From an uncultured Selenomonadales bacterium (GTDB taxonomy: Bacteria > Bacillota > Negativicutes > Selenomonadales > Selenomonadaceae), in contig CAMNPA010000001.1 in the NCBI GenBank assembly GCA_946547205.1, positions 1 to 45,170 on the forward strand: a stretch of DNA of 45,170 bases, written 5' to 3'. Shown here one piece after another: positions 17,700 to 40,303 of this stretch. The notes under the pieces were generated by a model. That model ran no database searches, was not told where the DNA came from, and saw only the letters and a list, made by a program, of their open reading frames with translations. Both the position numbers and the translations under genes were made by a program. Positions within the stretch are counted from its first letter, which is position 1; every line of letters starts with the position of its first letter.

Positions 17700-17789
17700 A
17701 TTTGCAATGTCAATTGAAGTTCCGCTTTAATTCGGTTGCTTGATTGCCGCGCGATAATTTTCTATCCGAGATGCCGGCGATAAAAACTT

Positions 17790-18122: not shown

Positions 18123-18307
18123 TCGCTCTCGTCCTCCATAAATTTAAATTTTCTCGCGGCTGATACAGAATCCAATTCCTCTAAGTCAAGTTCACGGTCA
18201 AATTCGCGCCGGGCTTTCCGCACCGATAAAATCCTGCGCAATAATTCTTCGCGAACTCGGCTTAAACTCGCAAAGTTGATTCTTTTTAGTTCTTCCTCGA
18301 CGTTCAT
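18119..18307 (-). CDS. Small charged hypothetical protein (62 aa) between the RsbW-like and STAS genes
   Basis: MNVEEELKRINFASLSRVREELLRRILSVRKARREFDRELDLEELDSVSAARKFKFMEDESE. ATGA overlaps at both ends (18304-18307 and 18119-18122) argue that it is translated. No recognisable domain. Confidence 0.45.
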   Translation of the reverse strand: MNVEEELKRINFASLSRVREELLRRILSVRKARREFDRELDLEELDSVSAARKFKFMEDESE

Positions 18308-18747
18308 GACAAGCCTGCCCTGTCGTCCGAAAGTTTCATGCCCAATTTCAAATGGTTGCAAAATAATTCGCCGTCGCGCCCGAAGTGATACGACATTTCA
18401 TCGAAGATGCGCCGCATAAACGAAATGCCAAGCCCGCCGACTTTCGCCGACTCCAAGTCAGAAGGTTTTTCCTTAATCTCTTCTTTCAAGAGCGGATTAA
18501 ACGGCTCGCCGCTGTCTTTCAGCTCAATGAAGAAATGTTCAGCCTCGCGATACGCACGAATCGAAATTTCTCCGACTTCACTTCCCGTGTAAGCGTAGTT
18601 GATGATGTTCGACGCCGCTTCTTCAAAGCCCAACTCCAAATAAATCTGCTTGTCGTCGGGAACGCCTGCCTTTTCTGCCGACTCCATCACGAAATCCAGC
18701 ATCGAATAATATTCCTCGCGTGTTGCAGGAAATTTTTGCCATTTCAT
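18304..18747 (-). CDS. Anti-sigma regulatory factor-type Ser/Thr kinase (RsbW/SpoIIAB-like, HATPase_c_2)
   Basis: 147 aa. N-box-like EEAASNIINYAY, DSGEPFNP, and the ATP-lid GGLGISFMRRIFDEMSY. Confidence 0.85.
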   Translation of the reverse strand: MKWQKFPATREEYYSMLDFVMESAEKAGVPDDKQIYLELGFEEAASNIINYAYTGSEVGEISIRAYREAEHFFIELKDSGEPFNPLLKEEIKEKPSDLESAKVGGLGISFMRRIFDEMSYHFGRDGELFCNHLKLGMKLSDDRAGLS

Positions 18748-19506
18748 TATATCACCTCGCCGCCGATAGGTTTAGACGCCAACTCACAAAGAATTTCAAG
18801 TTCCGATTTGCCGTCGACTGAAATTTTATCAAGAAATTTATTGACCGCCGCATAAATTTTCGGACGTTCAAGCGGAAAAACTTTTTGGCAGTAGAATTGC
18901 AAGCGACCCGTGCATTTGTCGCCATCGAGCCCGAAAAAAAATTCTCTGCCTGTCCGAGTCAAAATTTCCAAACGTCGCGACTTGTCCGAGTGTGTCCGCC
19001 AAAATTTCGTCGAGTGCGTGATTTTTCATGCCGCCGAACAATCTCAACGTTTCGTAATGCGCCGACTCGTGTCGAAGTCTGATTGCGTGCGATTTTTCCG
19101 ACCAATCTTCCGCCGTCAACGACAATTTTTCTGCGGGAATGTTGCTGTACGGTGCGCGGTTGAGCAAAAGGATTCGGTGCGGCTCGCCGTCAATCGTCGC
19201 CGGTATCGTGAATGCGTTGACTGTCAGCGGTAAAATTTTTTTCTCGCGATTCATCAGCCACGCCGCCAATGTCGTGAAGTCGTCGTGATTTTCCGTGTCG
19301 ATGACGGGCAACTTTCCCGCCAGTGTTTGTGCGAATGAAATTTTTATCGCGCCGCGCAGTTTCAATTCCCTGCCGTAAAGTTCGGACAAAAATTTTATCG
19401 AATCGACTTCGCGCCATTTGACTAAAAATTTTTCGTCGGCAAGCGGCAAACTCGGCAAAATCTTTGGAACGTCGTAGCAGTGCGCCAAATATTCTTCAGC
19501 CGTCAA
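18747..19506 (-). pseudogene. HExxH-motif protein (putative metallopeptidase-like), split into two frames at a T8 run
   Basis: The 212-aa ORF (18868-19506; TTG start overlapping the upstream stop as TTGA) carries LRHESAHYETLRLFGGMKNHALDEILAD. Its reading continues sensibly in the 74-aa ORF frame (18747-18971: ...FFGLDGDKCTGRLQFYCQKVFPLERPKIYAAVNKFLDK...). That second frame ends in a TAATG overlap with the next gene. Removing one T from the T8 run (18934-18941) gives a single ORF of about 252 aa. Confidence 0.6.
18934..18941 (-). repeat. T8 homopolymer (A8 on the plus strand) at the frameshift point
   Basis: Plus strand ccgAAAAAAAAttc. The frame switch between the two ORF halves maps here. 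Confidence 0.9.
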
Positions 19507-21704: not shown

Positions 21705-21717
21705 TGAAAATTCCGCC

Positions 21718-23112
21718 TTATGCAACTACTCGTTTCAAACCTAAACTTTTGGCAAGCGCAATGATTTTGTCGTAGTAGCCGCCTTTGAAAAAATTGCACG
21801 TGCTTTTATCAACGCCGAAAAAATCTCCGTCGCCATTGTCGTACATTGCCATTCCGCGACAGCCGCCGCCGCAACGATTTTTATAATCGCAGTCCGCGCA
21901 TTCGGGATGTTTTTTGAAATATTCGCCAAGTCGCGTGGTCATAAGACGCATATACGTTTCGTCGTCCAAAATTTCCTTCAAGCTCTTGTCCGTTATTCGA
22001 GAAAAAAATTTTTTGTTGCCTTGAGCATAATTCATCGGCATACACGGAACTACAGAGCCGTCGCAATCGATCTGCATGTAGTTTCGCGCGTGTCCGCACA
22101 CGCAATGATTGTCGCACTTAAAATTTTCAGCCATTTTGACAATCGGAATTGAATATTCGGTCGTGTCGTAAGCCGCAAACATTCCCGACAAATGCAATGG
22201 TATCGGCGCGCCGTCGGCAATGTATTGCGGAATATATTCAAGGAAAAAATCATCTTGTTCTGCTCGCGTCAAAAGTTTGTCTTGCATGTCGTAAGCCGCG
22301 CCCGCCGCAAAAATTCTTCCAATGCCTACCGAATCGACGCCAAGTTTCGCCAAAAGTTTCACGCTCTCGCGAACAGAGTCAAGGTTGCCTTTGTGCAGGT
22401 CGAAAGATACATGTATGTTAAGATTTCTCTCGTGCAACAGCTTGACCGCCCGATAAAAAGCTTTTTCCGCGCCGTTAAAGCCTCTAAGCCAGTCGTGGCA
22501 ACCGATTCCGTCAAAACTTATTTGAAAGCCCGGACGCCAATTCCGTTTCTCCATCTCGGCAAGAAATTTTTCGTTAATCAGAATTCCGTTGGTGAAAATT
22601 TTTTTGACTCTGATGTCTTTGGCAAACAGCTCGTCGACAATTTCCCAAAAGTCTCTGCGAATTAAAGGCTCGCCGCCAATCAACGACACGCTTTGAACGC
22701 CGCAGTCAGCCATTTGCGCGATGATGTCCATGCATTGCTCGTGCGTGAACTCTTCAACTTTTTGCGGCGACGACGACATATAACAATGTCGACATTTGCA
22801 ATTGCATCTGCCAGTTATCAGCCACGCAATCGCGCGCAAAAATCGGTTGTCGTGAAATTTATACTCCTGAGAACTTTCGAGCGGCGAAATTTTTTCTGTG
22901 GTCTCAACATAACCGTCCGCGATAAATTTTTCAATGATTTTGCGTTGCGTCTCGTCAAACGATTCGCTTGCCGTTTTTCCGTCGCACAACTTGAGCACGT
23001 TATATTTTTTCGTCGGAAAGAAATTGACCTTCCGATTCTCGCGATTAACCACGCCGGTCGGCAAAAGTTTCCAGCCGCGCAACATGTATTCGCTTTTGAG
23101 TCTGTAAAACAT
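21718..23112 (-). CDS. Radical SAM / SPASM-domain peptide maturase
   Basis: Radical SAM cluster motif GRCNCKCRHCY (CxxxCxxC). C-terminal auxiliary-cluster cysteines CDNHCVCGH...DCDGSVVPCMPM...CADCDYKNRCGGGCRGMA. The ATG at 23112 is preceded by AAGGTGA. An alternative ATG at 23184 overlaps the precursor stop (ATGA). Confidence 0.9.
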   Translation of the reverse strand: MFYRLKSEYMLRGWKLLPTGVVNRENRKVNFFPTKKYNVLKLCDGKTASESFDETQRKIIEKFIADGYVETTEKISPLESSQEYKFHDNRFLRAIAWLITGRCNCKCRHCYMSSSPQKVEEFTHEQCMDIIAQMADCGVQSVSLIGGEPLIRRDFWEIVDELFAKDIRVKKIFTNGILINEKFLAEMEKRNWRPGFQISFDGIGCHDWLRGFNGAEKAFYRAVKLLHERNLNIHVSFDLHKGNLDSVRESVKLLAKLGVDSVGIGRIFAAGAAYDMQDKLLTRAEQDDFFLEYIPQYIADGAPIPLHLSGMFAAYDTTEYSIPIVKMAENFKCDNHCVCGHARNYMQIDCDGSVVPCMPMNYAQGNKKFFSRITDKSLKEILDDETYMRLMTTRLGEYFKKHPECADCDYKNRCGGGCRGMAMYDNGDGDFFGVDKSTCNFFKGGYYDKIIALAKSLGLKRVVA

Positions 23113-23180
23113 TTCTTCACCTTGTCTGAAAAAAAAGGCAGGACTATTATTAATCCCGCCAAACAAATTTCTTTTTTTCG

Positions 23181-23477
23181 TCATTTGTTAAGATGTGGTG
23201 CACGGTTAGGATCACAGTCTCCGCCTTTGCCGCCTGCGACAGCTTCGAGTTCGTCGGCAGAAATTTCGCCTTCCTCGTCAGCATCTTGAGCCGCGAAATA
23301 AGCTTTTGCCTCGTCGAGAGAAATGTTGATGCCGAGTGTTTTGGCAAGTTCGCCGAGTTGAAGGATCTGCTCATCTGTCGCGTCCTCAACAGGAGTTTTG
23401 CCGATAATCTTTTTGACTTCAGCCCTGACCGCGTCGTCGCTCATAGCTCTCGTGTAGAATTCCTGAAACTTATCCAT
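23181..23477 (-). CDS. RiPP precursor peptide with Nif11-type leader and double-glycine cleavage site; predicted core KGGDCDPNRAPHLNK
   Basis: 98 aa. Leader MDKFQEFYTRAMSDDAVRAEVKKI...ILQLGELAKTLGINISLDEAKAYF resembles the Nif11 N-terminal domain. ISADELEAVAGG fits the double-Gly consensus (hydrophobic at -12, -7 and -4; E at -8; GG at -2 and -1). RBS GGAGG lies 9 nt before the ATG. Confidence 0.85.
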   Translation of the reverse strand: MDKFQEFYTRAMSDDAVRAEVKKIIGKTPVEDATDEQILQLGELAKTLGINISLDEAKAYFAAQDADEEGEISADELEAVAGGKGGDCDPNRAPHLNK

Positions 23478-23641
23478 AGTGAATACCTCCGTTAAATTTT
23501 TGTTGCTGTCGATTCAGCTTGTCCCTTGCGGCTCAAATTTTTACTTCCTAATCATATATACGCTCGAAAACGCAAACCGTTAGGGCTTCCGAAAAAAAAA
23601 TTTTTCGCGCCGAATTCGGTTGAGCCTCGCCGCCATTTTAC

Positions 23642-23669
23642 TTGACACAGAAAAAATTTCAACTAAAAT
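23642..23669 (+). promoter_or_regulatory. Near-consensus sigma70-type promoter for the GNAT-ACP-KS arm
   Basis: TTGACA (23642-23647), 16-nt spacer, TAAAAT (23664-23669), about 18 nt upstream of the ATG at 23687. It sits in the ~210-bp divergent region shared with the precursor gene. Confidence 0.5.
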
Positions 23670-23686
23670 TTACGCGGGTGATCATC

Positions 23687-24595
23687 ATGCGAAAAATAAT
23701 CAACGCTGCGTATCAAGATTATACTTTCTTGTTTCGGGACAGTCGCACGACTTATTCCGACTTGTGCGTAAAAAAATCTGCCGCCGAAAAAAATTTTTAC
23801 ATCATGATTGAAGACAATTTTCCTGCGGGCTATATCTGCGCGAGCTCTGAACGAAATATTCTTTATGTTAATTACGCGTACACCGTGCCGGAAAAAAGAA
23901 GTCGCGGGATTTTTACTTCGCTGCTGAAATTTCTGACCGAGCTTGAGGAAAATTCTGCAGTTATGGTTCAAAGCCCGGCTGCCGATAAAAAATATTCAAA
24001 GACCGTCGCCGATATCTGTGAAACGCTTGGCTTTCAAAAAAATTCCGTCTGCAGAACATCTTGCTCCGATTGGAACTGTCTTCGCGAGTGGAAAGAAATT
24101 TTTTTCGATAAGTTCATGGCGGACAAGGGCAATAAATATCTCGAATTCTTTGCGCGGCGTGATTTTAAAATTTTGTCATTTGCAGACGCGTCGTCGGAGC
24201 ATTTGGAGCAGCTCTATCATTCGCATGAAAATTATTTCGGCAATACCTTCGACGTGAGAAAATATTTCGACGGCTACGACAAAAATCTTGTAGACAATGA
24301 CTTGAGCTTTGTCGCCGTTAAAAATGACGAAGTCGCCGCGTACTTTCTGACACTCGCGGTCAATAAAAATAATCTTATCGCCGAACAAACTGCAGTCGCA
24401 AAAAAATATCTCGGCAGCGGCTTGATGTTCGTTTTGCTGAATGAATTCGTTCAGAAACTTTACGCTCGCCGGTGCGATAAACTTGCCTTTGCCGTTTACG
24501 AAGACAATTTCGCCGCGATTAAGTTCTACGATAAAATTACCGGGCAGCTCAAAACTTCGCACGGATATATTTGCAAATTCCTGTTGAAAAAATGA
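23687..24595 (+). CDS. Tandem GNAT-fold acyl/acetyltransferase (candidate peptide lipid transferase)
   Basis: Two GNAT-like halves. The first has VPEKRSRGIFTSLLKFL ... ICETLGF. The second has VAKKYLGSGLMFVLLNEFVQKL ... VYEDNFAAIKFYDKITG (acyl-CoA pocket R/QxxGxG/A and N..A..FY.K.G patterns). ATG at 23687. The track start at 23642 is the TTG of the -35 box. Confidence 0.6.
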   Translation: MRKIINAAYQDYTFLFRDSRTTYSDLCVKKSAAEKNFYIMIEDNFPAGYICASSERNILYVNYAYTVPEKRSRGIFTSLLKFLTELEENSAVMVQSPAADKKYSKTVADICETLGFQKNSVCRTSCSDWNCLREWKEIFFDKFMADKGNKYLEFFARRDFKILSFADASSEHLEQLYHSHENYFGNTFDVRKYFDGYDKNLVDNDLSFVAVKNDEVAAYFLTLAVNKNNLIAEQTAVAKKYLGSGLMFVLLNEFVQKLYARRCDKLAFAVYEDNFAAIKFYDKITGQLKTSHGYICKFLLKK

Positions 24596-24609
24596 TTGGA
24601 GGAACCTTC

Positions 24610-24882
24610 ATGACGAATCTTGAACAAAAAATTTTTGACAAGCTGATTGAGCGGCTGAACATTGCGCCGAGCGAACTTGAAGGCGTCGACGAAAATTCAC
24701 CGCTCTTTGAAGGCGAGACCGACGAACCGTCATTTAATCTGGATTCTCTCGACAGCCTGGAACTGATTTTTCTGATTGAAAGCGAATTCGGCTTTGAAGT
24801 GCCCGCAGAAGATATGAGCAAGTTCACGACGATAAAAGCAGTCGCGCAATACGTCGACGAACATTTGAGGGCAGGCAAATGA
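24610..24882 (+). CDS. Acyl carrier protein
   Basis: 90 aa. Phosphopantetheine-attachment motif FNLDSLDSLELIFLIESEFG. RBS GGAGG lies 7 nt before the ATG at 24610. Confidence 0.85.
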   Translation: MTNLEQKIFDKLIERLNIAPSELEGVDENSPLFEGETDEPSFNLDSLDSLELIFLIESEFGFEVPAEDMSKFTTIKAVAQYVDEHLRAGK

Positions 24883-26090
24883 ATCGCGCGGTAATTACCG
24901 GGATCGGTCTGATTTGTTCCAACGCCGAAAACAAAAAAGAATTCGCCGAAACATGTTTCAGCGGACGAGTCGGAATGAAAGAATGCAAAACTTTCACGAC
25001 CGCAGGGCTGACCACGCCTTTTTTCGGCGAAACCTGCGATAAATATTCTCTTGACGCGCCGTATGATAAAAATTCGCTCACTGACAACCGATATTATTGC
25101 ATGTTGGAAAAATCTCTGCGCGAAATGATGACTGACGCCGACATTGACAGAGATTATGTAAGTTCGCTCGGAAAGAGTTGCCGAATGTTTTTCGGGACGT
25201 TCATTTACACTGCCGAAGCCAGAAATTTGCGCCGCAGAGCACGAAAAATCGGCGAAGTTGATAATTCAATCGCTTTTGTCAATGATTATTCCGCCTTCGC
25301 AAAAAAAATTGTCGGCGTCAAAGGCACGGTCACGACGGTTACAACGGCTTGCTCTTCGTCCTCGGCGGCGGTCGGCATGACTTTTGATTATATTCGCCAC
25401 GGCATTTGCGATTGCGCGATCGTTGTCGGCGTGGACAATCTTTCCATTGATGATGCATACGGTTTTCACGCGTTGAGACTTTTGAGCAACGGCATTTGCA
25501 ATCCTTTCGACAAAAATCGCGACGGAATTAACATCGGCGAAGGCTCTGTCGCATTTTTTATTGAATCATTGGAGCACGCGAAGGCTCGGCAGGCGAAAAT
25601 TTATTGCGAATTGGTCGGCTACGCTCTTGGAAACGACGCTTATCACATAGTCAGTCCCGAACCTTCGGGCAAATCGGCTTGCAATGTGATGAAAAATGCT
25701 CTTGACGACGCCAAAATCTCAATTTCCGCCGTGGATTACATTAACGCGCACGGAACGGGAACAATTTTAAATGACTCTATGGAATTGAAGGCGATTGAAA
25801 AATTAATGGCTGATACCGACAAAAAAATTTGGGTGTCTTCCACAAAATCGATGATCGGGCATTGCATGGGCGCGGCGGGCGCGATTGAAATTGCGAGCGT
25901 TATCCTGTCGATGAATCACAAAAAATATATTCCGATGCCGAACTTGAAAAATCCTATTGAACACAGCGAAAAAATTTGCATGTCGAGTGAAACTTTTCCG
26001 CTTGAGATAAATTACGCGCTCTCAAATAATTTTGCGTTCGCCGGAAACAATTCCGCATTGGTTCTGAAAAATTTCAAGGACGGAGATTAA
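24879..26090 (+). CDS. Beta-ketoacyl-ACP synthase (KAS I/II-like, Cys-His-His)
   Basis: Active-site Cys in VTTACSSSSAAVG. His in NAHGTGT and STKSMIGHCMGAAGAIE. ATGA overlap with the ACP stop. Confidence 0.9.
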   Translation: MNRAVITGIGLICSNAENKKEFAETCFSGRVGMKECKTFTTAGLTTPFFGETCDKYSLDAPYDKNSLTDNRYYCMLEKSLREMMTDADIDRDYVSSLGKSCRMFFGTFIYTAEARNLRRRARKIGEVDNSIAFVNDYSAFAKKIVGVKGTVTTVTTACSSSSAAVGMTFDYIRHGICDCAIVVGVDNLSIDDAYGFHALRLLSNGICNPFDKNRDGINIGEGSVAFFIESLEHAKARQAKIYCELVGYALGNDAYHIVSPEPSGKSACNVMKNALDDAKISISAVDYINAHGTGTILNDSMELKAIEKLMADTDKKIWVSSTKSMIGHCMGAAGAIEIASVILSMNHKKYIPMPNLKNPIEHSEKICMSSETFPLEINYALSNNFAFAGNNSALVLKNFKDGD

Positions 26091-26093
26091 TTT

Positions 26094-27068
26094 ATGAAAC
26101 CGATTTACATTCAAGGCGTCGGAGTCATTTCAAGATTTGCGCTCAACTTTGAAGACTTGCTAAAAATCGCCGCCGATGAATCGTTTGCCATTAATTTTGA
26201 TAAGAAATTGTCTTTCGCGCCCAATGCGCCTTTGTCCAAAATCAGACGTGCTCCGCGTTATACTCGAATGGCAGTTTCTGCGGCGGCTCAAGCCAAAATC
26301 GACGCAAATTTATCTGACGACCAAGATAAAGCGCGCGTGGGAACGATATTTTCAAGCGGCTTCGGTTCTTTGGAAAGCACGTTGGAGTTTTCCGATTCAC
26401 TTTTGCCCGGCAAACCTGATTTGGTGAGTCCGATTTTGTTTTCTTATTCGGTTGCCAATGCGTGCGTCGGACAGATTTGCATTTTGAACGGCTTTACGGG
26501 CTTCAGCACATTGTTGACGGCAGGCGACCCTTTGGAATATTCCGCAATGTTGCTTGCGACCGATAAAGCTGACGTAATTTTTTGCGGCGCGACAGATGAA
26601 TACAACGAGGAACTTGACACTGCGATTAAGTCGTGCGGGATTTTGCAAGAAAAAATTTCTGACGGCGCGGCAGTGTTGATTCTTTCGACCAACGCAGAGA
26701 AAAGTTATTGCCGAATAAAAAAATTCTCTTCGGGCTCGCTGGCGGCATATCCTTACATTCACAAAACGGATACGGCTGACAGCGCGGAAGTTTTGGCGGA
26801 AATTTTTTCGGTTTATGAAGAGCCGGAAGTTATCTTAACGTCCTGCAACGGCTCTTACTTCGACGCGATAGAAAAAACTGTGCTGAAAGAAAAATTTAGA
26901 GCTGCCCGACTTATCGACGCGAAAAAATATTTCGGCGAGACTCTCGGCGGCGGCTATATGCTCAACGTGACATTGGGCGCGGCATTTATAAAGCTCGGAC
27001 GTTGCAAATCGTTGTTGGCTGCGGGAATCGACGTTCACGGCAATTATCTGACTGCATTTCTGGATTAG
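26094..27068 (+). CDS. KS-like partner lacking the catalytic histidines (chain-length-factor-like)
   Basis: 324 aa with a thiolase-fold pattern (SYSVANACVGQICILNG). The positions matching HGTGT and GH..GAAG read SCNGSYF and GETLGGGYM, so the His dyad is absent. Confidence 0.65.
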   Translation: MKPIYIQGVGVISRFALNFEDLLKIAADESFAINFDKKLSFAPNAPLSKIRRAPRYTRMAVSAAAQAKIDANLSDDQDKARVGTIFSSGFGSLESTLEFSDSLLPGKPDLVSPILFSYSVANACVGQICILNGFTGFSTLLTAGDPLEYSAMLLATDKADVIFCGATDEYNEELDTAIKSCGILQEKISDGAAVLILSTNAEKSYCRIKKFSSGSLAAYPYIHKTDTADSAEVLAEIFSVYEEPEVILTSCNGSYFDAIEKTVLKEKFRAARLIDAKKYFGETLGGGYMLNVTLGAAFIKLGRCKSLLAAGIDVHGNYLTAFLD

Positions 27069-27086
27069 ACAATCCGTCAACGTCAC

Positions 27087-29774
27087 TCAAGCAATTTGAC
27101 GCTTGACCAAATCGGAGAAAATTCCGTTCAGCGCAACGAGTTCATCAAACGTGCCGCTCTCAACGATTTTTCCTTTGTCGAGCACAATGATTCGGTCGCA
27201 ATCTTCAATCGTGCTCAATCGGTGCGCTACGACGATTCGCGTGACGTTCCGCTTGTTCAAACTCTCGGTGACAATGGCTTGAGTGCGATTATCGAGCGCG
27301 GAAGTTGCCTCGTCGAAGATTAAAATTGCAGGTTTGGCGGCTAAAGCTCTCGCGATTAAAATTCGTTGACGTTGTCCGCCGGAAATATTTGTCGAGCCTT
27401 CGCTGATGAAAGTTTGCATGCCCATCGGCATTTTTTTTATGTCTTCGTCGAGACCGGCGGCTTTTGCGGCTTCCCAAGCGTCTTCTTGCGTCAAAGCAGT
27501 CGCGCCGACAATGTTTGCAAAAATATCGCCGCTCATGAGTTGTCCGTTCTGCAAAACGACGCCCATTTGACTGCGCACCGACGAAACGTTGAGTTCCGAC
27601 AAGTCTTGACCGTCATAATAAACTGCGCCGCTTTTTGGCTCTTCAAAACCGAGCAGCAATCGGAGCAACGTCGATTTTCCGCAACCGCTCTTGCCGACAA
27701 TCGCAACGTTCTCGCCCGCCGCAATCCGAAAACTCATGTCGTCGACAACATTTGGCGAATCGGCTGTGTAGGAAAAAGTTAAATGCGAAACTTCAATCGC
27801 GCCGCTCAAAATGTCCGCGTCCGGCTTGTCGGCTGAAACTTCGGGCATCTCTTCCAAAATCGGTCGCAAGTTCTCTATCTGCGGCTGAATCACGAAGAAT
27901 TTTTCGATAAAGCCCGTCAGCGTGTTCAAAGCCATATTAAAACTCGTGAACGCTGCTTGAAACGCGATGAACTCCGCGAAGTCAATTCCCGATACGAAAA
28001 TTTCGCCGTTGAGTTCACCCAAAACGTAAAACGCCACGTAAAAAAGCAACAACGTCATTGTCAACGGCTGAATTGCCGCAAAAGTGTTGAGATATTTGGA
28101 TTGCAGACTCAGTGCATAATTCCATTTCCATTCCTCGCCGAAAACTTTGCTCCAGAGAAAATAAGCCTGCTCTTCCGCGCCGCCGATTCTGAATTTCGGC
28201 AAGCCCGTAAATATTTGCTGAACCATTCCCGAATTTGCATTCTTCGCCGCGACCCATTTGACTTGAAATTCTCCGAACTTGCGGCAGAGAAAAAACGTCA
28301 CTGCCACATAAAACAGCCACAAAACTAACGCCGCCGCCGTCAACTTCAAGCTGTACCAGCACATTAAAAGCAAACTCCAAAATGAAAACAGCACGTTGAG
28401 TATCGCCGCGATCATTTCGCCGCTTAAAATTTCTTTTATCTTTTCTATTCCCAAAATCCTCTGCGCCAGTTCGCCGGATTGAAAGCGTCGGAAAAAACTC
28501 GTCGGCAAAGCCAAGATTCTGCCCCAAAGTGCCGCTTCCGTCTGCATGTCGATATGCGACGTGATTCTCAGCACCGCGATTGAACGCACGATTGACACCG
28601 CCGCCATTGTGAACGCCGTGACGATTGAAACTTGCGTGACGATAACCAAGCCGCGCCTGTCGAGTATCGGAATTATGTCCGCGAAGATGCTTTGCGTGAT
28701 AATCGGCGTGACAATCGGAATTAAGCCCGCGACAAAACTTGCCGCCAAAATTTGACGATAATCGACGCGCCAAATGCGATTCAGCATGAATCTCATCAAG
28801 TCGACGAACTTCAACGGACGCAACGGCAAGCCCGCATAACATTGGAACGCGCTCGGCTCAATCTGCGCGGCAATTTGTTTGTCAATCAGAGTTCCGTCGA
28901 GATTTTTCGCGGTGATAAGTTTGTAAACGTCGGGACTTTGCGGAATGAACGCTGCAAGCTCTTTCTTGTCGCCGAAGTAGCCGATAAAAATTCCGCTGTC
29001 CTTTTGAAACCAGTCGCCTTCCAAAGTCACGAGTCGCATTTGCATATTTGCCTTTTGCACGAGACGACGAATCAAACCGATTTGATCGAGGTTCTTGGCA
29101 ATTTCCGGAGCAAGTCGCAGATTATTCGCGGGCATACCCAAAAATTTGGCGACACTCTTAACGAGGAAAGCAATTTCTTCCAATTTGCCTTCGCCGCCGG
29201 AATCTTCGCCGTACAGTGATTCTTCGCCGCGGAGATTGTCAATCGCCGCGTTGATGAGATTTTTTTTGTGACGACTGCGAGTTTCGAGCCGCATTTCCAA
29301 TCGTTTATCTTCCGCATCAAAACGCATGCCGAGCAGCATCGCGAAAATCTGTTCGTTTTCGGTGAAGTCGTCGAGCAAAGTTTCCAAGTCGTTTTCCGAG
29401 CCGCGCAGGACTTGTCCGTTTATCCACGGGATTAACACATCGTCGCCTTTGTCAGCCAAAAGTTTAAGCCACGGCAGCTTTATCAAATTTTGGAACCACG
29501 CGCGCATTAAATTTGCCTGTTCGAGCGGCGAAACTTCGTTGAACGATAAAATTTCAAGCTCCGAATCTTGCACGGCGTAAATTTGCATGTCGATTTGCTC
29601 AAATTCGTCCAGCGACGGATAAGCAGCTCCGTTTATCGGCAGCTCCATTAAAAAAATTTGTCGGAATGATTCTTTTAATTGAGTGACGGCGTAAACTTCA
29701 GCCGCGCCCGATTTCAGGCGAACAAATTTATTTTCGTCGTGCAGTTTAAATCGTTGTCCCGCCAAAAGTTTCAT
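27087..29774 (-). CDS. ABC exporter (TMD+NBD) with a ~330-aa N-terminal non-peptidase domain; second ABC of an NHLM-type bacteriocin export cassette
   Basis: Walker A GKSGCGKSTL, signature ISGGQRQRILIARAL, Walker B ILIFDEATSALD. The N-terminal extension has no C39 Cys/His motifs. The ATG at 29774 is preceded by GGAGG and overlaps the upstream stop (ATGA). The track start at 29945 is an extension inside the upstream gene. Confidence 0.85.
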   Translation of the reverse strand: MKLLAGQRFKLHDENKFVRLKSGAAEVYAVTQLKESFRQIFLMELPINGAAYPSLDEFEQIDMQIYAVQDSELEILSFNEVSPLEQANLMRAWFQNLIKLPWLKLLADKGDDVLIPWINGQVLRGSENDLETLLDDFTENEQIFAMLLGMRFDAEDKRLEMRLETRSRHKKNLINAAIDNLRGEESLYGEDSGGEGKLEEIAFLVKSVAKFLGMPANNLRLAPEIAKNLDQIGLIRRLVQKANMQMRLVTLEGDWFQKDSGIFIGYFGDKKELAAFIPQSPDVYKLITAKNLDGTLIDKQIAAQIEPSAFQCYAGLPLRPLKFVDLMRFMLNRIWRVDYRQILAASFVAGLIPIVTPIITQSIFADIIPILDRRGLVIVTQVSIVTAFTMAAVSIVRSIAVLRITSHIDMQTEAALWGRILALPTSFFRRFQSGELAQRILGIEKIKEILSGEMIAAILNVLFSFWSLLLMCWYSLKLTAAALVLWLFYVAVTFFLCRKFGEFQVKWVAAKNANSGMVQQIFTGLPKFRIGGAEEQAYFLWSKVFGEEWKWNYALSLQSKYLNTFAAIQPLTMTLLLFYVAFYVLGELNGEIFVSGIDFAEFIAFQAAFTSFNMALNTLTGFIEKFFVIQPQIENLRPILEEMPEVSADKPDADILSGAIEVSHLTFSYTADSPNVVDDMSFRIAAGENVAIVGKSGCGKSTLLRLLLGFEEPKSGAVYYDGQDLSELNVSSVRSQMGVVLQNGQLMSGDIFANIVGATALTQEDAWEAAKAAGLDEDIKKMPMGMQTFISEGSTNISGGQRQRILIARALAAKPAILIFDEATSALDNRTQAIVTESLNKRNVTRIVVAHRLSTIEDCDRIIVLDKGKIVESGTFDELVALNGIFSDLVKRQIA

Positions 29775-31984
29775 TGGCTTGCCTCCGCCGTATTTTTGGT
29801 GCTGCCTTGAATCAATCTGCGATAAGCTCCGTCGTGCTGAATCATTTCGCGATGAGTGCCGCGTTCGACGACTTTGCCTTTGTCCAAAACAATAATCTCG
29901 TCGCAGTCTCTGATTGTCGAAAGTCTGTGCGCCACGATAAAACATGAACAGCCGCGCCGCCGAATATTTTCCAGAACAATTTTTTCGGTCACGGGATCAA
30001 GTGCACTGGTTGCCTCGTCCAAAACCAGAATCGACGGATTGTTTGCCAAGGCGCGAGCAATTTCGAGCCTTTGACGCTGACCGCCCGAAAAATTCAAGCC
30101 GCCTTCGGAAACTTGAGCCTCGTAGCCGCCTTCGAGTTTCAAAATGTCGTCGTGAATGCAAGCGTCCTGCGCCGCGCGGATAACGTCATCTTTTTTGGCG
30201 GAAGTATCAAACAGCGTGATATTTTCGCGAACGGTGCCCGTGATTTGGAAAATGTCTTGGTCAACGGACGACAGCGAATTAACAATGACATCGCGCGGAA
30301 TTTCACGACGAATCACACCGTCAAAGAGAACGTCGCCGCTCCATTCCTCATAAAAGCCCGTCAAAATTTTTGAGAGCGTCGATTTTCCGGAACCGCTGAA
30401 ACCGACAATCGCGACCCAACGTCCCGGCTCCACGTGCAAATTAAAATTCTCCAAAAGCGGCGGCTCAAGCGGACTGTAGCCGAAATTTACGTTGCTCAAT
30501 TCAATTTCGCCCGATAAGCGCGTGCCGTTGAAATTATTTGCGCGAGTTTCTTCGGGATAATTCAAACCGTCGACTTGATAGCGATAAACGTCGTCGAGGC
30601 GTTGCATTTGCATTTCCGTCGTCTGCAAAGTCGTTCCGAGTTTAACCATTTTATCGACCGGCTCTTGAAACCTGCCCATCAAATTTTGAAACGCCGTAAA
30701 AATGCCCGCCGTCATCACGCCTTCCATAATCGAAAAGCCGCCGAGTGTGATTATCAGCGCGGAATTTATTCCCGTGAGCAGAGTCGGCAAAACATTCATC
30801 GTCAGCGACTTCATTTGAACTTCTTGCGTGCCGATTAAAGCTTTTGAGTGATAGCCTGCCCATTTCGCGAAAAAATCGCTTTCGTTGCCGTTCGCCTTGA
30901 TAGTTTCGATAATCGCCAGTCCGTTTACCGCAACTCCGAATTCTTTTCCGAGTGCCTGCTGAACTTGCATATTCATATCCGTAATTTGTCGGCGCAAAAG
31001 AAAAAAAACGATTAAATCTACGACGCTGAAGCTCACGCCGATAATCGTCAGTGTCACGCTGTATTGAAACAGCAACGCGAGATAAAACAGCGCGATAAGA
31101 AAATCCAAGACAGCCGTTGCCGCTTGATTCGCCAAAACTCTTGAGATTAAATCGATGAAACTTACTCGCGACGCTATTTCGCCCGCGTATCGTTGCTGAA
31201 AGAAAGTCATCGGCAATCTTAGGACGTGCCAAAAAAATCTTGACGAGTCGGAGAGCGTCAATTTCTTTTGCCAGCGCGTCAGCAAAATCGTTCGCAAAAT
31301 GTTGAGAATGCCCGTCAAAATGATTGTGCCGATCATCGCCAAACATAACTTCGGCATCCAATCGGGATGTTTGCCGCTCAAGATGTCGTCGAGAAAAATT
31401 TGATTGAACACGGGCGACGCCAGACCCGGAAAAATCATTGCCGCACCAATCAGCATGACGAAAATCATTGCAACTTTATCTTGAGCGAGTTTTTCCGAAA
31501 TGGCTTTGACGACGCTGTATCTTTGACCTTCGCGCCTAAAATTTTCGTCGGGCTTGAACGTCATCGCAATGCCGGTGTAAGACGTGGAAAAATCTTTCCA
31601 AGGAACTTTTCGCCGACCCATCGCCGGATCGTTAAGATATGCAACGTCGCCGATAATGCCTTCCAAAACGACGAAATGATTGAATTCCCAATGGATTATC
31701 ATCGGGAAAGTTTTTTTCTTTAAAGTGTCCGCCTTCCAACGAAAAGCTTTTGCTTCCAAGCCGAGATGTTTAGCCGCTTTTAAAATGTTTGCCGCTTTGG
31801 AGCCGTCGCGATTGACGCCGCATTCTTGACGCATCTTTTCGAGCGGAACCCAACGTCCGAAACTCGCCAAAATCATTGCCAACGCCGCCGCGCCGCATTC
31901 GACAGACTCCATTTGCAAAATCGTCGACACCTTCACGCGCGAACCGTCTTTTGCCGCGAAAAATTTTTTTATCTTGCCAATCAT
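29771..31984 (-). CDS. Bacteriocin-processing ABC exporter with N-terminal C39 cysteine peptidase domain
   Basis: C39 motifs: QMESVECGAAALAMILASFG (catalytic Cys) and IIHWEFNHFVVLEG (His). Walker A GFSGSGKSTL, signature FSGGQRQRLEIARAL, Walker B ILVLDEATSALD. ATG at 31984; the track start at 32053 is a TTG. Confidence 0.9.
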   Translation of the reverse strand: MIGKIKKFFAAKDGSRVKVSTILQMESVECGAAALAMILASFGRWVPLEKMRQECGVNRDGSKAANILKAAKHLGLEAKAFRWKADTLKKKTFPMIIHWEFNHFVVLEGIIGDVAYLNDPAMGRRKVPWKDFSTSYTGIAMTFKPDENFRREGQRYSVVKAISEKLAQDKVAMIFVMLIGAAMIFPGLASPVFNQIFLDDILSGKHPDWMPKLCLAMIGTIILTGILNILRTILLTRWQKKLTLSDSSRFFWHVLRLPMTFFQQRYAGEIASRVSFIDLISRVLANQAATAVLDFLIALFYLALLFQYSVTLTIIGVSFSVVDLIVFFLLRRQITDMNMQVQQALGKEFGVAVNGLAIIETIKANGNESDFFAKWAGYHSKALIGTQEVQMKSLTMNVLPTLLTGINSALIITLGGFSIMEGVMTAGIFTAFQNLMGRFQEPVDKMVKLGTTLQTTEMQMQRLDDVYRYQVDGLNYPEETRANNFNGTRLSGEIELSNVNFGYSPLEPPLLENFNLHVEPGRWVAIVGFSGSGKSTLSKILTGFYEEWSGDVLFDGVIRREIPRDVIVNSLSSVDQDIFQITGTVRENITLFDTSAKKDDVIRAAQDACIHDDILKLEGGYEAQVSEGGLNFSGGQRQRLEIARALANNPSILVLDEATSALDPVTEKIVLENIRRRGCSCFIVAHRLSTIRDCDEIIVLDKGKVVERGTHREMIQHDGAYRRLIQGSTKNTAEASQ

Positions 31985-31988
31985 GCCG

Positions 31989-32948
31989 TCACCTGCTCCT
32001 AAGCCGTTGACTGATCTTGTAAAAAACTTTTTCAATCGGCGGTTGTCGCTCAATGATTATCGAGCCCGTGCAAAAACTTCCGGGCGTTATCGGTTTGTGC
32101 TCTCCGACAATCGAAGTCCACAGGTAGCCCGACTCCGAATCTTCATCCTTAACCAAATCGAATTTAATTTCCATGAGCGCGCTGTTTTGAGAAGTTTGAA
32201 TCCACTGCGCAAGTTGAGCGTTGCCGAGTTTTTGACGGATGCTTTCCGCAGAAACGGGATATTGCGAGACTGCACGCACGACGCCGATTAGACTGCCTGC
32301 TTGCGAAGTGTCCACGCCGTTTGGAACAAGTTGAATCGTCATGCCCGGCTCAACACGCTTGCCTTTGTCGACAGGAATATAAAAAACGCCTTTCAAGTCG
32401 TCGCGATTTTGTGTAAGGCGAATCGTGCAGACAGGCGAGCCGCTTGAAATAACTTTGCCCTTCTCAATCAAAACTTCGTCAATAATTCCGTCGTAGTCGC
32501 TGTAAATGTATTCGGCAATGTTAAGCTGCTCTTTCTTCGCGCCGTATTGATAAACTCTGTTCAAAGCGTCGCGGTCGCTTGAAGCAAGTCCCATGCCGTA
32601 TTGCGCCATTCGAGTATCAGCCGATTGAGACGCCTGTTCGAGTTGCGCAATTAAATCGCCGCTATGAACATGAGTTCCGGTTTTTACGTAGACAGCAGAA
32701 ACTTTGCCGCCGGATATGTGCGAAACGTTCACGACGCCTGCAGAGTCCATGATAAGTCCCATGCCGTTAGCTTTGACCGTGAACGCGCCGAAGATTGACC
32801 ACAGCACGATTGAAAACAGCAAAAGCAAAATTGCCGCCATCATGACCCAACCTATCGGCGTCGTTATCGGAAAAAGCATGTCCAAACGTTCGGGCGAGCG
32901 CAATTTATTCAGTGCCTCTTTACTGAAGAGCCGATCTTGTTTAGCCAA
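31989..32948 (-). CDS. HlyD-family secretion adaptor (NHLM-type bacteriocin secretion protein)
   Basis: N-terminal LFSKEALNKLRSPERLD, then TM IGWVMMAAILLLLFSIVLWSIF, lipoyl-like ISGGKVSAVYVKTGTHVHSGDLIAQL, and a beta-barrel C-terminus. No ATG lies upstream of the TM. TTG at 32948 sits 9 nt after AAGGAG. TTG at 32966 or 32978 are alternatives. Confidence 0.75.
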   Translation of the reverse strand: MAKQDRLFSKEALNKLRSPERLDMLFPITTPIGWVMMAAILLLLFSIVLWSIFGAFTVKANGMGLIMDSAGVVNVSHISGGKVSAVYVKTGTHVHSGDLIAQLEQASQSADTRMAQYGMGLASSDRDALNRVYQYGAKKEQLNIAEYIYSDYDGIIDEVLIEKGKVISSGSPVCTIRLTQNRDDLKGVFYIPVDKGKRVEPGMTIQLVPNGVDTSQAGSLIGVVRAVSQYPVSAESIRQKLGNAQLAQWIQTSQNSALMEIKFDLVKDEDSESGYLWTSIVGEHKPITPGSFCTGSIIIERQPPIEKVFYKISQRLRSR

Positions 32949-34194
32949 TGTCGCCGTCTCCTTCAAGCGTAAAATCAACTTTCATACCGTCTTCAAGGTC
33001 TTCGGTGCCGCTCGTTACGACCAATTCATTTTCCTTCAGACCGTGCACGACTTCGATAAAATTTCCGTCGTCCGAACCCGTTTCAATCTCACGCCGAAAA
33101 ATTTTCCCGTCAGCTGCGACGAAAACTTCATTCCGTGCCGGCGAAGTCATTGCGCTAAGCGGTACCGTCAAACAATTTCGCGGGCTCATCATCTGCAAAG
33201 ACGGCGCGTTATACGTTTGCGGCTCAAGGAGACCTGCGCGGTTATCAATTTCCCAGAGAATTTTTCTGATGTTCGCGGGAACTTCAGGCGACGGAGTTAT
33301 TTCGATGATTTGCGCAGTAAATTTTTGCTCGCTGCCCGAATTGCCTGCCTCGTATTCCGTATCGTAAATCTTGGAAAAATTTGCGTGGCTGAAACGGAGC
33401 GTCGCCACATCTCCGATTTTAAATCGCTTGGTGAATTTGTCTTCAATGTCAACGGAAAAATTCAGCGTCCGAAAATCGCCGACCAAAGCCATCGCCGTTC
33501 CTGCCGTCACATACGAGCCTTGCGTTTTGTACAAAATCAAAACTTCGCCGTCAATCGGTGCGGTTATTTCGCTGTATGAACTCTCAATCAAGAGCTGTTC
33601 TTTCTGCGCGATTAAATATTCTTTCTGCACAAGCAACGATTTCTTTTGAAGGTGTGAATTTTGAAGATTAACCTGCGCTTCTTTGTATGTCGCTTCGATT
33701 TCTTCAAATTTTTCGGTCGAAACTGCGTCTTGAGCAATCAGTTGGCTGTAGCGTTCAAAATCACTCTTCGCGCGTACCAAATTCGTTTCCGACTTCATTA
33801 TTTCGTTGTCCGCCCGCAGAATTTCATTTTCAATCTTGAGAATGTCAATGTCAGCCTGCCGAAGTTTTACCGATTGCGTGTCGTTCGTCACCGTGAATAA
33901 TTTTTGCCCTTGAACAACGCGATCATTTTTCCGCACGTCAATTGAAGTTATTCTGCCGTCGAGCAACGCCACTGCGTCCGTCATTTTGTTTGAATAAAGA
34001 TTCAACGTATCGAGTGCCAGTCTCGGCTTGAGTTGTCGCATTTGAACTTTCGCGCCGCGCAGTGGAATTGTCTGGTTGCTCATTCGCTCCGCTATTTGAT
34101 TTTCGCCGCGCTGATTCAAATATGTCCCGTATGCCACCAGTGCGATTATCAGGACTAAAATAATTCCCAAGCCTATAAAAAATGGTCGTTTCAT
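32941..34194 (-). CDS. Second membrane-fusion (HlyD/RND-adaptor-like) protein
   Basis: N-terminal anchor MKRPFFIGLGIILVLIIALVAY. Lipoyl-like halves LDGRITSIDVRKNDRVVQGQKLFTV and ITAPIDGEVLILYKTQGSYVTAGTAMALV are separated by a coiled-coil region. Confidence 0.75.
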   Translation of the reverse strand: MKRPFFIGLGIILVLIIALVAYGTYLNQRGENQIAERMSNQTIPLRGAKVQMRQLKPRLALDTLNLYSNKMTDAVALLDGRITSIDVRKNDRVVQGQKLFTVTNDTQSVKLRQADIDILKIENEILRADNEIMKSETNLVRAKSDFERYSQLIAQDAVSTEKFEEIEATYKEAQVNLQNSHLQKKSLLVQKEYLIAQKEQLLIESSYSEITAPIDGEVLILYKTQGSYVTAGTAMALVGDFRTLNFSVDIEDKFTKRFKIGDVATLRFSHANFSKIYDTEYEAGNSGSEQKFTAQIIEITPSPEVPANIRKILWEIDNRAGLLEPQTYNAPSLQMMSPRNCLTVPLSAMTSPARNEVFVAADGKIFRREIETGSDDGNFIEVVHGLKENELVVTSGTEDLEDGMKVDFTLEGDGDIG

Positions 34195-34230
34195 TGAACA
34201 ACTACTTCCTCAAAATTTTTTTTACAAACT

Positions 34231-38034: not shown

Positions 38035-38037
38035 GAT

Positions 38038-40293: not shown

Positions 40294-40303
40294 AAAAATT
40301 CTC

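Follow-up and report, generated by a model that had tools for sequence, protein, structure and literature searches.

A candidate gene cluster for a lipidated, radical-SAM-modified ribosomal peptide in an uncultured rumen Selenomonadaceae bacterium

We consider it fairly probable that positions 17790-34194, approximately, of DNA from an uncultured rumen bacterium of the Selenomonadaceae form one biosynthetic gene cluster whose product is a ribosomal peptide that is lipidated, macrocyclic and secreted. Positions are those of the window, the whole stretch of 45,170 nucleotides analysed. By sequence, the cluster encodes a precursor of Nif11 type that contains a GG site, a radical SAM (rSAM)/SPASM maturase, a tandem GNAT, an acyl carrier protein (ACP) and a ketosynthase/chain-length-factor (KS/CLF)-like pair, together with NHLM peptidase-ABC export proteins and regulators of the partner-switching kind, and the same parts travel together in related loci. 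A preliminary description had named precursor, rSAM, GNAT-ACP-KS-KS' and exporter within 21718-34194. All four elements lie where it placed them and their genes pass profile tests; the conserved span, however, is wider, its left edge reaching 17790 and adding regulatory and DUF7005 genes. We infer the acylation and the crosslink of the core from sequence. As an interpretation, an rSAM-crosslinked and acylated RiPP is supported, and sequence comparison turned up none of the observations that had been named as speaking against it.

Precursor, maturase and exporter

The precursor gene (23181..23477, minus strand) encodes 98 residues with a Nif11-like leader and a GG cleavage motif, ending in ISADELEAVAGG and the 15-residue core KGGDCDPNRAPHLNK. 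The leader had been called Nif11-like from this one sequence, which alone scores below the cut-off of 32.3 for TIGR03798 leader_Nif11 (13.3 bits, E 0.077); the assignment holds at the family level, where seven of eight aligned members match the model (best E 5e-11). Lys occurs within the first three core residues in about 15 of 22 cores, and at +1 in 10 of the 22, often directly after GG. The L001 core is essentially identical to that of the window, minus only the C-terminal Lys. Exactly one Cys is present in all 13 distinct cores from loci that bear an rSAM, and none in the Nif11-type cores of L025, L026 and decayed L002, where the rSAM is not intact.

Beside the precursor lies the radical SAM/SPASM peptide maturase (21718..23112, minus strand). 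Its long reading frame of 488 aa spans 21718-23184, and the true start is probably Met25, at 23112. Profiles (Radical_SAM, E 3.6e-18; SPASM, E 2.2e-09), the CNCKCRHC (CX3CX2C) motif and seven SPASM cysteines, invariant across 26 homologues, bear out the earlier reading of this gene as a radical SAM enzyme with a Cys-rich SPASM tail. The AF2 model has a pLDDT of 88.9, and the enzyme matches SkfB, SuiB, CteB and PqqE best, in sequence as in fold. A seven-Cys SPASM rSAM adjoining its precursor is shared with sactipeptide, ranthipeptide and other rSAM/SPASM RiPP systems (SkfB, CteB, PapB, SuiB), and cores with a single conserved Cys are a further likeness. Unlike those enzymes, the window rSAM stays below every curated NCBIfam equivalog cut-off (StsB 105 versus 625, PapB 75 versus 340, SkfB 67 versus 300), and a PqqD/RRE profile search of its N-terminal domain gave no match. 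In our proposal the rSAM would bind the leader-bearing precursor and join the one Cys of the core to a second residue, with a thioether as the likeliest bond. Relatives of the enzyme in L021 and L022 (57-59% identity) also adjoin GG-precursors, with cores devoid of Cys; a thioether is therefore not a safe assignment for the rSAM family overall. A terminator-like hairpin on the minus strand (23137..23160) separates the precursor stop from the rSAM start; it has 10 pairs, including 5 GC pairs, is followed by a T-run (TTTTTTTT) and may act as an attenuator.

The export genes, also on the minus strand, encode the NHLM ABC2 permease/ATPase (27087..29774, start as called in L004; TIGR03797, 766.8 bits), NHLM ABC1 with a C39 peptidase domain (29771..31984; TIGR03796, 994 bits; Peptidase_C39, E 4.6e-35) and an NHLM-type HlyD secretion protein (31989..32948; TIGR03794, 216.2 bits). 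Judged against the curated NCBIfam cut-offs, all three exceed them (709.4, 853.3 and 156.2, respectively). The set of C39-ABC, second ABC and HlyD first described is thus upheld, except that HlyD is not the only adaptor: a further gene encodes a periplasmic adaptor of RND_mfp type (32941..34194, minus strand; TIGR01730, 131 bits, cut-off 94.9) that is syntenic in L001, L011, L018 and L024.

The GNAT-ACP-KS-KS' arm

Within an intergenic gap of 209 bp, where a spacing of about 210 bp and a near-consensus promoter had been noted, lie overlapping divergent promoter-like sites (23635..23669). The plus-strand TTGACA-16-TAAAAT (23642-23669) is the best such site of the region, with 11 of 12 matches; its minus-strand counterpart is TTGAAA-16-TAAAAT, and both are kept in three other loci (L001, L002, L009). 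The GNAT gene follows (23687..24595, plus strand; 302 aa), its start being the ATG at 23687 and not the TTG of the long ORF. Profile searches and fold comparison agree on the tandem GNAT assignment made earlier: the predicted fold (AF2, pLDDT 83.5; Foldseek matches MAB_4324, VipF and MshD) is supported as a tandem GNAT, belonging to a distinct family. Directly downstream on the plus strand are a dedicated ACP with a DSLDSL Ser site (24610..24882; PP-binding 34.8 bits, below cut-off for NF006617 and the acyl_carrier models) and a FabF-like Cys-His-His ketosynthase (24879..26090; profiles, motifs TACSSS, HGTGT and GHCMGAAG), followed by KS', a chain-length-factor-like partner (26094..27068; PF13723). 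The GNAT and ACP genes lie 14 nt apart, ACP and KS overlap at ATGA, and 3 nt separate KS from KS', so that motifs and junctions match the initial account of a DSLD carrier protein and a Cys-His-His KS linked by ATGA or short gaps. The partner had been described as His-less; aligned to T. thermophilus FabF it lacks both His and, through a deletion, the catalytic Cys as well. It weakly matches PDB chains 6qsp_B and 6smo_C, which we take to be KS-partner subunits of aryl-polyene and anthraquinone type II systems, the PDB titles being silent on this.

The combination of a discrete Cys-His-His KS with a partner devoid of catalytic residues and a dedicated ACP recalls type II PKS and aryl-polyene systems, as does the FabG-like KR that follows KS' in most relatives; unlike those systems, the window cluster has no cyclase, DH, thioesterase or AMP-ligase. 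KR, DH, ER, acyltransferase and PPTase genes are all absent from the window clade. Of the lack of KR, DH and ER remarked on at the outset, that of the KR is peculiar to the window clade, with L026 as a further case, since relatives carry a KR after KS'.

What does the GNAT transfer? Its C-terminal half finds its top profile matches among RimI-type acetyltransferases, L007/L008-type loci have the GNAT without in-cluster ACP or KS, and PMC13647313 cites aphotorhaptin, an N-acetylated daropeptide, as an rSAM RiPP N-acylated by a GNAT. The enzyme might then merely acetylate the peptide from acetyl-CoA, as tailoring of the aphotorhaptin kind or for self-protection, leaving the ACP/KS pair to serve something else. 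We judge this very unlikely; it is hard to reconcile with ACP-KS-KS' lying directly 3' of GNAT, at closely spaced or overlapping junctions, in at least six divergent arrangements.

Related loci and the regulatory flank

Is the lipid arm part of the peptide pathway at all? At least six loci that differ in arrangement combine GNAT-ACP-KS-KS' with neighbouring Nif11-type precursors and peptidase-ABC exporters, and three lineages, namely the window clade, L024 and L028, have an rSAM as well, in keeping with the co-occurrence first proposed as a check. The block from STAS to MFP is whole in L001 (73-91% protein identity). L018/L012 have the order MFP-HlyD-ABC1-ABC2-sigma-GNAT-ACP-KS-KS'-KR-precursor, to which L024 adds five precursors, rSAM, OEP, STAS and SpoIIE on one strand; L028 reads ABC1-ABC2-DUF7005-GNAT-ACP-KS-KS'-KR, then four precursors and rSAM; L025 and L026 contain GNAT, precursor, ACP-KS-KS' and peptidase-ABC. 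KS' relatives of at least 39% identity occur almost only in GNAT/precursor clusters, and every examined arrangement at that level combines arm, Nif11-type precursor and peptidase-ABC, except L029; at 33% (L030) the context is an APE-like lipid cluster.

Two pathways lying side by side, one in which GNAT-ACP-KS-KS' yields a free lipid or a small N-acyl compound and one that leaves the peptide only rSAM-modified, would account for L029, which has ACP-KS-KS'/KR without GNAT or precursor, and for L002/L003, where the arm is intact and the rSAM and ABC genes are decayed; from that pattern, the arm may have a use without those genes. The window GNAT family also has no detectable similarity (hhalign probability 2%, no BLASTP match) to NpuN, a proven peptide acyltransferase. 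Such a division is nevertheless improbable. GNAT adjoins a gene with the same leader at every locus with enough flank, even without any ACP or KS (in L007, L008, L015 and L020 it directly follows that gene), exporter genes and precursors flank the arm on one strand in L018, L024 and L028, and the decayed L002 precursor still has leader, GG site and Lys1. Since some loci pair GNAT with a precursor only, the rSAM, GNAT and ACP/KS modules are separable and form no obligate set.

Left of the rSAM, on the minus strand, 14 nt downstream of its gene, begins a dCache-HAMP-SpoIIE (PP2C) sensor phosphatase gene (19503..21704; identified by Pfam in its L004 and L001 counterparts); SpoIIE-type genes recur near the related rSAM or GNAT loci L023, L024 and L026. 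The same strand encodes an RsbW-like anti-sigma kinase (18304..18747; weak RsbW matches, E 9.5e-09; Pfam HATPase_c_2 on the identical L004 product) and, at the end of the conserved operon, an RsbV-like STAS anti-sigma-factor antagonist (17790..18122; TIGR00377, 68.5 bits, cut-off 53.45). The STAS gene adjoins the cluster in L001 and L004, and STAS genes are also found in L023, L024 and L026. Translationally coupled between these two is a 62-aa ORF with the leader-like motif ELDLEELDSVSAA (18120..18308, minus strand), called in L004 and absent in L001; L024 has a similar 61-aa ORF (LSLDELDSVAAA) before STAS.

The remaining gene of the flank encodes a DUF7005 protein with a conserved HExxH...NHxxDE motif (18747..19506, minus strand; the intact L004 copy matches PF22541 with E 2.9e-33). 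Compared with L004, which is 99.6% identical, the window has an additional T near 18941 that shifts the reading frame. The protein may act as a peptidase or as a partner of the GNAT. DUF7005 is fused to the window-type GNAT family in P0238 and overlaps the GNAT start, translationally coupled, in L028, and HExxH is kept in 4 of 4 copies compared. Lipolanthines, goadvionins, lipoavitides and aphotorhaptins are N-terminally acylated after leader removal (PMC13647313), and the same product could arise in that goadvionin/lipoavitide order, a protease, possibly DUF7005, removing the leader before GNAT acylates the N-terminal alpha-amine instead of a Lys side chain. We hold this to be unlikely, if less so than the other alternatives: the export-coupled C39 peptidase would be bypassed, an alpha-amine target would not require a conserved Lys at or near +1, and DUF7005 is missing from most related loci examined and without a match in PDB or NCBIfam.

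Known systems and the proposed pathway

Selidamides (kamptornamide, phaeornamide, nostolysamides; GNATs KspN, PhaN, NpuN) share with the window a Nif11/NHLP leader with GG site and an NHLM-type HlyD and C39-ABC export set. NpuN is a predicted tandem GNAT acylating Lys1 of a Nif11 precursor in a cluster with the same NHLM genes (PMC13060382); both GNATs have about 300 aa and a tandem fold (NpuN by AF3 prediction, PMC13060382; the window GNAT by AF2), and Lys lies at or near core position 1, GG being followed by KGKSC in NpuA and KGGDC in the window. Apart from the dissimilar GNAT sequences, selidamides differ in drawing acyl groups from primary metabolism, without in-cluster ACP or KS, and in rings that are lanthionines made by LanM, where the window cluster has rSAM.

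In goadvionins and lipolanthines, too, an in-cluster ketosynthase chain is moved by a GNAT from carrier protein to peptide (PMC8784127, PMC13647313), the goadvionin enzyme GdvG taking an ACP-bound donor (PMC8784127). Those products come from actinobacteria, have class III lanthipeptide/avionin scaffolds and PKS-type assembly lines, and are acylated at the N-terminus after proteolysis; the window, compared by description, has a discrete type II KS/CLF pair, Nif11 leader, rSAM and C39 export in rumen Firmicutes. The lipoavitides (lpv) are likewise RiPP/fatty-acid hybrids, their acyl unit being made by non-modular FAS-like enzymes and attached to the peptide by an acyltransferase, but their KS III is of FabH type, the donor is linked to CoA and the scaffold is AviMeCys, and the available part of their description mentions no rSAM, Nif11 leader or KS/CLF pair (10.1101/2023.10.25.564083).

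Our literature searches found no publication that places an rSAM and a GNAT/ACP/KS lipid arm on one ribosomal peptide, and an rSAM paired with an ACP/KS arm is absent from the lipidated RiPP families listed in PMC13647313 and from the literature found. The combination was initially regarded as uncharacterised as a whole; because the GNAT-N-acylated rSAM RiPP aphotorhaptin is already cited there, the novelty lies in the dedicated ACP/KS/CLF arm.

In the lipidated-peptide pathway that we favor, the KS/KS' heterodimer would use malonyl units to elongate a primer carried by the dedicated ACP, and the missing steps would fall to housekeeping FabD, AcpS and FabG. The tandem GNAT would move the ACP-bound acyl group to a core amine, most likely the Lys1 side chain, by analogy with NpuN on its GG-KGKSC precursors. 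The C39 domain of ABC1 would cleave after GG during export, ABC2, HlyD and MFP would carry the product through the diderm envelope, and the dCache-SpoIIE/RsbW/STAS set would regulate the system. What the bacterium releases would then most likely be a small peptide, ring-closed by the radical-SAM enzyme and bearing a fatty tail from its own miniature fatty-acid/polyketide machinery.

A proposed acyl-chain arm and its acyltransferase

Could a peptide modified by a radical SAM (rSAM) enzyme also receive an acyl chain made within its own cluster? The preliminary description had proposed such a pathway at this locus, a lipidated RiPP with a Nif11 leader and a GNAT-ACP-KS-KS' arm (KS' denotes a ketosynthase partner, here likened to a chain-length factor, CLF). 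The gene set it listed was recovered, with ten genes at 21718-34194, and the conserved cluster reaches left to 17790; the long ORF starts of rSAM, GNAT, ACP, ABC1 and ABC2 were replaced by family-conserved starts. The observation is confirmed and the interpretation supported as far as sequence analysis reaches, the chemistry of the product being predicted.

The four-gene arm lies at 23687-27068 on the forward strand. Its first gene starts at ATG 23687 and encodes a GNAT of 302 aa, whose predicted structure (pLDDT 83.5) matches the solved tandem GNATs MAB_4324, VipF, MshD and the clavulanate tandem GNAT in Foldseek (E 1e-11 to 1e-15), in agreement with the tandem architecture first read from the DNA. 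When the GNAT profile was compared with PDB sequences, only marginal single-domain GNAT matches came back, and tblastn of plasmids with the GNAT as query only generic GNATs. In a scan of 1.84 billion proteins we retrieved 188 family representatives at E <= 1e-3 and 34 at E <= 1e-30; this small family falls into 20 clusters when grouped at 90% identity.

Functionally, its nearest analogue is the selidamide GNAT NpuN, of near-equal size and likewise a predicted tandem GNAT, which acylates Lys1 of a Nif11 precursor reading GG|KGKSC (PMC13060382). The npu locus carries the same NHLM HlyD and ABC1 genes, and the selidamide hallmark, a tandem GNAT of ~300 aa encoded beside a Nif11/NHLP precursor with an N-terminal Lys or Orn, is found in the window as well. 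The family profile fails to align to NpuN (hhalign probability 2%; no match by BLASTP or tblastn), so the GNAT is no demonstrable member of the selidamide clade. By analogy of context it resembles a selidamide acyltransferase, the clade comparison having been made with NpuN.

ACP, KS and KS' follow the GNAT directly, in an order conserved among related loci. The ACP bears its Ser in a DSLDSL site, the KS retains the FabF residues Cys, Lys and both His, and KS' shows a deletion at the Cys position and no catalytic His in the FabF alignment; the assignment of a Cys-His-His ketosynthase with a His-less partner thus holds. A reading in which KS' kept an active-site Cys (ANAC) was dropped in view of that deletion. 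A KS with the Cys-His-His triad, a partner lacking it and an ACP with a DSL Ser together constitute, judged by these residues, a discrete type II KS/CLF-style set. Relatives carry a FabG-like ketoreductase (KR), which points to a short acyl product, 3-hydroxy or 3-oxo in form, or to extension of a primer from fatty-acid synthesis; the KR is absent from the window clade.

A carrier protein and a ketosynthase within the cluster are also the gene content of the goadvionin type, and the GNAT may take an ACP-bound acyl group, a use of donor for which the goadvionin GNAT GdvG provides precedent (PMC8784127). Goadvionins are built on a class III lanthipeptide/avionin scaffold, whereas Pfam and NCBIfam detect no lanthipeptide synthetase domain in the ten proteins of the window cluster.

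Precursor peptides and the radical SAM enzyme

The precursor gene (23181-23477, reverse strand) encodes a product ending in ELEAVAGG|KGGDCDPNRAPHLNK, a double-glycine motif followed by a short core of predicted mass 1,565 Da. The double-glycine part of the earlier assignment stands. The Nif11 part does so at the level of the family: the window precursor by itself has no significant Nif11 match in Pfam or NCBIfam (13.3 bits against TIGR03798, cut-off 32.3, albeit aligned end to end), but seven of eight aligned relatives match this leader model (best E 5e-11). E76, L77, V80, A81, G82 and G83 are unchanged in all eight family members, and PF07862 Nif11 is among the domains listed for P0066, a relative of the rSAM.

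The predicted promoter TTGACA-16-TAAAAT is indeed the best-scoring site of the region. It is overlapped by a divergent TTGAAA-16-TAAAAT on the opposite strand, and both are kept in three other loci. Within what is presumed to be the 5' leader of the precursor transcript, four loci share an almost unchanged block of ~39 nt (CATATATACGCTCGAAAACGCAAACCGTTAGGGCTTCCG, 23553-23591), though its flanks are deleted in two of them. Rfam gave no match to this block, nor any across 17000-35000.

The rSAM (21718-23112, reverse strand) contains both Radical_SAM and SPASM domains, as had been claimed. Its CX3CX2C motif (C127, C131, C134) and seven SPASM cysteines (C363, C381, C429, C432, C438, C442, C463) are unchanged in 26 homologues, a Cys pattern that corresponds to a complete SPASM domain carrying two auxiliary clusters. 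The AlphaFold model (pLDDT 88.9) leaves residues 1-21 disordered and predicts with confidence a beta/alpha domain spanning residues 26-96. Together with the alignment of the 26 homologues, it places the probable start at Met25 (position 23112), which makes space for a terminator-like hairpin (23137-23160) between the precursor and rSAM genes. No PqqD-like RRE was matched by Pfam in the N-terminus even at E 10.

Which reaction might this enzyme catalyze? In sequence and fold it is closest to the thioether synthase SkfB, followed by SuiB, CteB, PqqE and anSME, and full-length alignments reach SuiB, SkfB and CteB. It attains no curated maturase equivalog (StsB 105/625, PapB 75/340, SkfB 67/300 and AlbA 61/850 bits). 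The GNAT loci with an rSAM encode 13 distinct cores, each with exactly one Cys (four from the window clade, five from locus L024 and four from L028), so that a single Cys-derived crosslink is the likeliest reaction. However, rSAMs 57-59% identical to that of the window, in L021 and L022, adjoin GG-precursors whose cores have no Cys. We give a thioether product about even odds, and these relatives may represent members of one rSAM family that form a different kind of crosslink. In both loci (L021:8701-10401; L022:4644-6308) the rSAM gene lies behind GG-leader precursors that are 64-65 aa long and have Cys-free cores such as ASPYSFGIGIDKDKNKSNQNYPGIVAT, beside a glycosyltransferase and an uncharacterized protein of 294 aa.

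Cys is likewise missing from the Nif11-type cores in L025, in L026 and in L002, a decayed locus. Lys is found at core positions 1-3 in ~15 of 22 cores, and 10 start GG|K, among them those of the window, L001, L002, L020 and L028. L004 is 99.6% identical to the window across 20.9 kb, yet the core peptides are unlike: KGGDCDPNRAPHLNK in the window (23181-23230) and KGGDCGPNRAPHRLRLNK in L004 (9486-9540) differ by an Asp-to-Gly change and a C-terminal indel.

Export genes and related loci

The export genes are the firmest identities in the region by profile score. All three NHLM families exceed their curated NCBIfam cut-offs: the C39-peptidase ABC matches NHLM_micro_ABC1 with 994 bits (cut-off 853.3), the second, peptidase-free ABC matches ABC2 with 766.8 (709.4), and HlyD scores 216.2 (156.2). 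The cassette proposed earlier is upheld in these members; its HlyD gene had not been told apart from a second adaptor gene at 32941-34194, which encodes an RND-type membrane-fusion protein (MFP). Selenomonads are diderm Firmicutes, and a HlyD together with an MFP adaptor fits this envelope.

Adjacent to the cluster, an 844-aa TPR protein (34231-36765, reverse strand) has at its C-terminus a domain resembling CFI-box-CTERM (35 bits, cut-off 40); in a fusion at L023:5622-6170 a similar Cys-rich domain follows a Nif11 leader with a GG site. Downstream of the TPR gene, three dynamin-family GTPase genes (421, 780 and 559 aa) stand in a row at 36769-41983 on the reverse strand; in L001 they are not beside the cluster. 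From 42000 to 45170 the GC content rises from ~0.44 to 0.52 over a 1017-aa ORF (42096-45149, reverse strand).

All relatives come from ruminant gut metagenomes, and the named records are Selenomonadaceae or Selenomonadales MAGs. The window, L004, L001, L009 and L014 share one type; in L001 the block from STAS to MFP is syntenic (73-91% protein identity) and the core is essentially the same except for the lack of the C-terminal Lys. A second clade, with GNATs 34-39% identical to that of the window, comprises L018/L012, L011, L010 and L017. Its gene order reads, on one strand, MFP-HlyD-ABC1-ABC2-sigma factor-GNAT-ACP-KS-KS'-KR-precursor, followed by more GG-leader peptides, so the exporter probably handles several substrates. 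At L012:4758-5254 these extra peptides, encoded behind the Nif11 precursor, combine a short GG leader (MSEESKKTELTEDALDNVAGG...) with a core of ~90 aa. We withdrew a reading of this clade as lacking an rSAM, because the L012 and L018 contigs stop less than 1 kb past the precursor and the rSAM of L024 and L028 sits downstream of the precursors.

L024 (KS' 57% identical) shares the L018-type order and carries in addition five Nif11 precursors together with an rSAM, an outer-membrane factor, STAS and SpoIIE. L028 (KS' 45%) reads ABC1-ABC2-DUF7005-GNAT-ACP-KS-KS'-KR-DUF2807, then four precursors and an rSAM. The proposed association of GNAT-ACP-KS-KS' with a Nif11 precursor and an rSAM therefore recurs, being seen in the window clade, L024 and L028. 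L025 and L026 (KS' ~40%) contain the GNAT, a Nif11-type precursor, ACP-KS-KS' and a peptidase-ABC, with a KR in L025 and no rSAM within 10 kb in either. L002 (1-8500) and L003 are decayed copies with rSAM and SpoIIE in fragments, scraps of ABC1 and ABC2 and a transposase-like ORF nearby; their GNAT-ACP-KS-KS' genes are intact (79-93% identity), and the precursor has a new Cys-free core with Lys first.

Four further loci, L007, L008, L015 and L020, have GNATs 53-73% identical to that of the window and neither ACP nor KS. Directly upstream of the GNAT they encode the same leader with GG, a short Lys-containing peptide (10-26 aa) and a Hint domain (L007:366-1121, L008:245-970, L015:416-1108, L020:74-763). 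This C-terminal Hint/intein-like domain opens with Cys. The fusion suggests a self-cleaving precursor, which could leave a C-terminal thioester.

Across the loci surveyed, the GNAT and a leader-bearing precursor thus form the invariant pair, a pattern broken only by L029, which has nothing but ACP-KS-KS'/KR, and by the distant locus L030, an APE-like lipid cluster at 33% identity. As judged from gene content, ACP-KS-KS', usually with a KR, is the usual companion of this pair, and the rSAM is an add-on in three lineages.

Control genes, DUF7005 and a possible lipopeptide class

A dCache-HAMP-SpoIIE gene begins 14 nt after the rSAM gene, and overlapping junctions join the next four genes, DUF7005, an RsbW-like kinase, a 62-aa ORF and STAS. 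L001 keeps the set from dCache-SpoIIE to STAS, and SpoIIE, STAS or RsbW genes appear again in L023, L024 and L026. An ORF of 61-62 aa before STAS (window 18120-18308, reverse strand; L024:16333-16518; absent in L001) contains a leader-like ELD(L/E)ELDSV(S/A)AA motif, which ends in AA rather than GG and has a short tail.

Compared with L004, the DUF7005 gene of the window (18747-19506, reverse strand) has a single inserted T near 18941 that shifts its frame. PDB and NCBIfam gave nothing useful for this protein, its ubiquitin matches being repeat artefacts, and we found no description of it in the literature. It is probably a member of the pathway, since the protein P0238 is a fusion of it with the tandem GNAT, and in L028 (L028:4758-5651) it is translationally coupled to the GNAT, whose start it overlaps. 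It has a conserved HExxH...NHxxDE motif and may be a peptidase. If so, the leader may be cut off first and the N-terminus acylated second. We favor transfer by the GNAT to Lys1 of the Nif11-leader peptide, a step in which DUF7005 may take part.

The GNAT-lipidated RiPPs known so far have lanthipeptide scaffolds, and most are from cyanobacteria, proteobacteria and actinomycetes. In the literature we found no account of a Nif11-leader RiPP that has its own ACP/KS/CLF arm, whether an rSAM accompanies it or not, nor of rSAM-GNAT-KS RiPPs or RiPPs of rumen Selenomonas. The recorded families are selidamides, lipolanthines, goadvionins, lipoavitides and aphotorhaptins (PMC13647313). Aphotorhaptin is an N-acetylated daropeptide according to work cited there, and on that secondary mention it would set a precedent for an rSAM RiPP N-acylated by a GNAT.

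Taken together, the loci could represent an undescribed class of RiPP-polyketide/fatty-acid lipopeptides in rumen and gut Firmicutes, a proposal we advance tentatively and regard as somewhat short of probable. A dedicated type II KS/CLF-ACP set, usually with a KR, would build the acyl chain, and the new tandem-GNAT family, with the HExxH protein DUF7005, would move it to Lys1. The scaffold would come from interchangeable modules, either a ring that the rSAM forms from the single Cys or a Hint domain that cleaves itself. The system would be controlled by a partner-switching circuit of the dCache-SpoIIE type, which would suit a role in signalling.

Ribosomal lipopeptides are wanted as engineerable alternatives to the non-ribosomal daptomycin and polymyxin, and to our knowledge very few natural products of strictly anaerobic rumen bacteria have been characterized. 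If true, the proposal would provide a compact and self-sufficient apparatus for making acyl chains (ACP, KS/CLF, KR), a new family of peptide acyltransferases that has a leader type of its own and an rSAM-made scaffold, all from such bacteria. The finding is of solid interest to specialists in natural products and in the microbiology of the rumen. The variants with and without rSAM, with and without ACP/KS, and with the Hint fusion would offer a natural experiment on the role of each part, and the cluster would give DUF7005 its first functional context.
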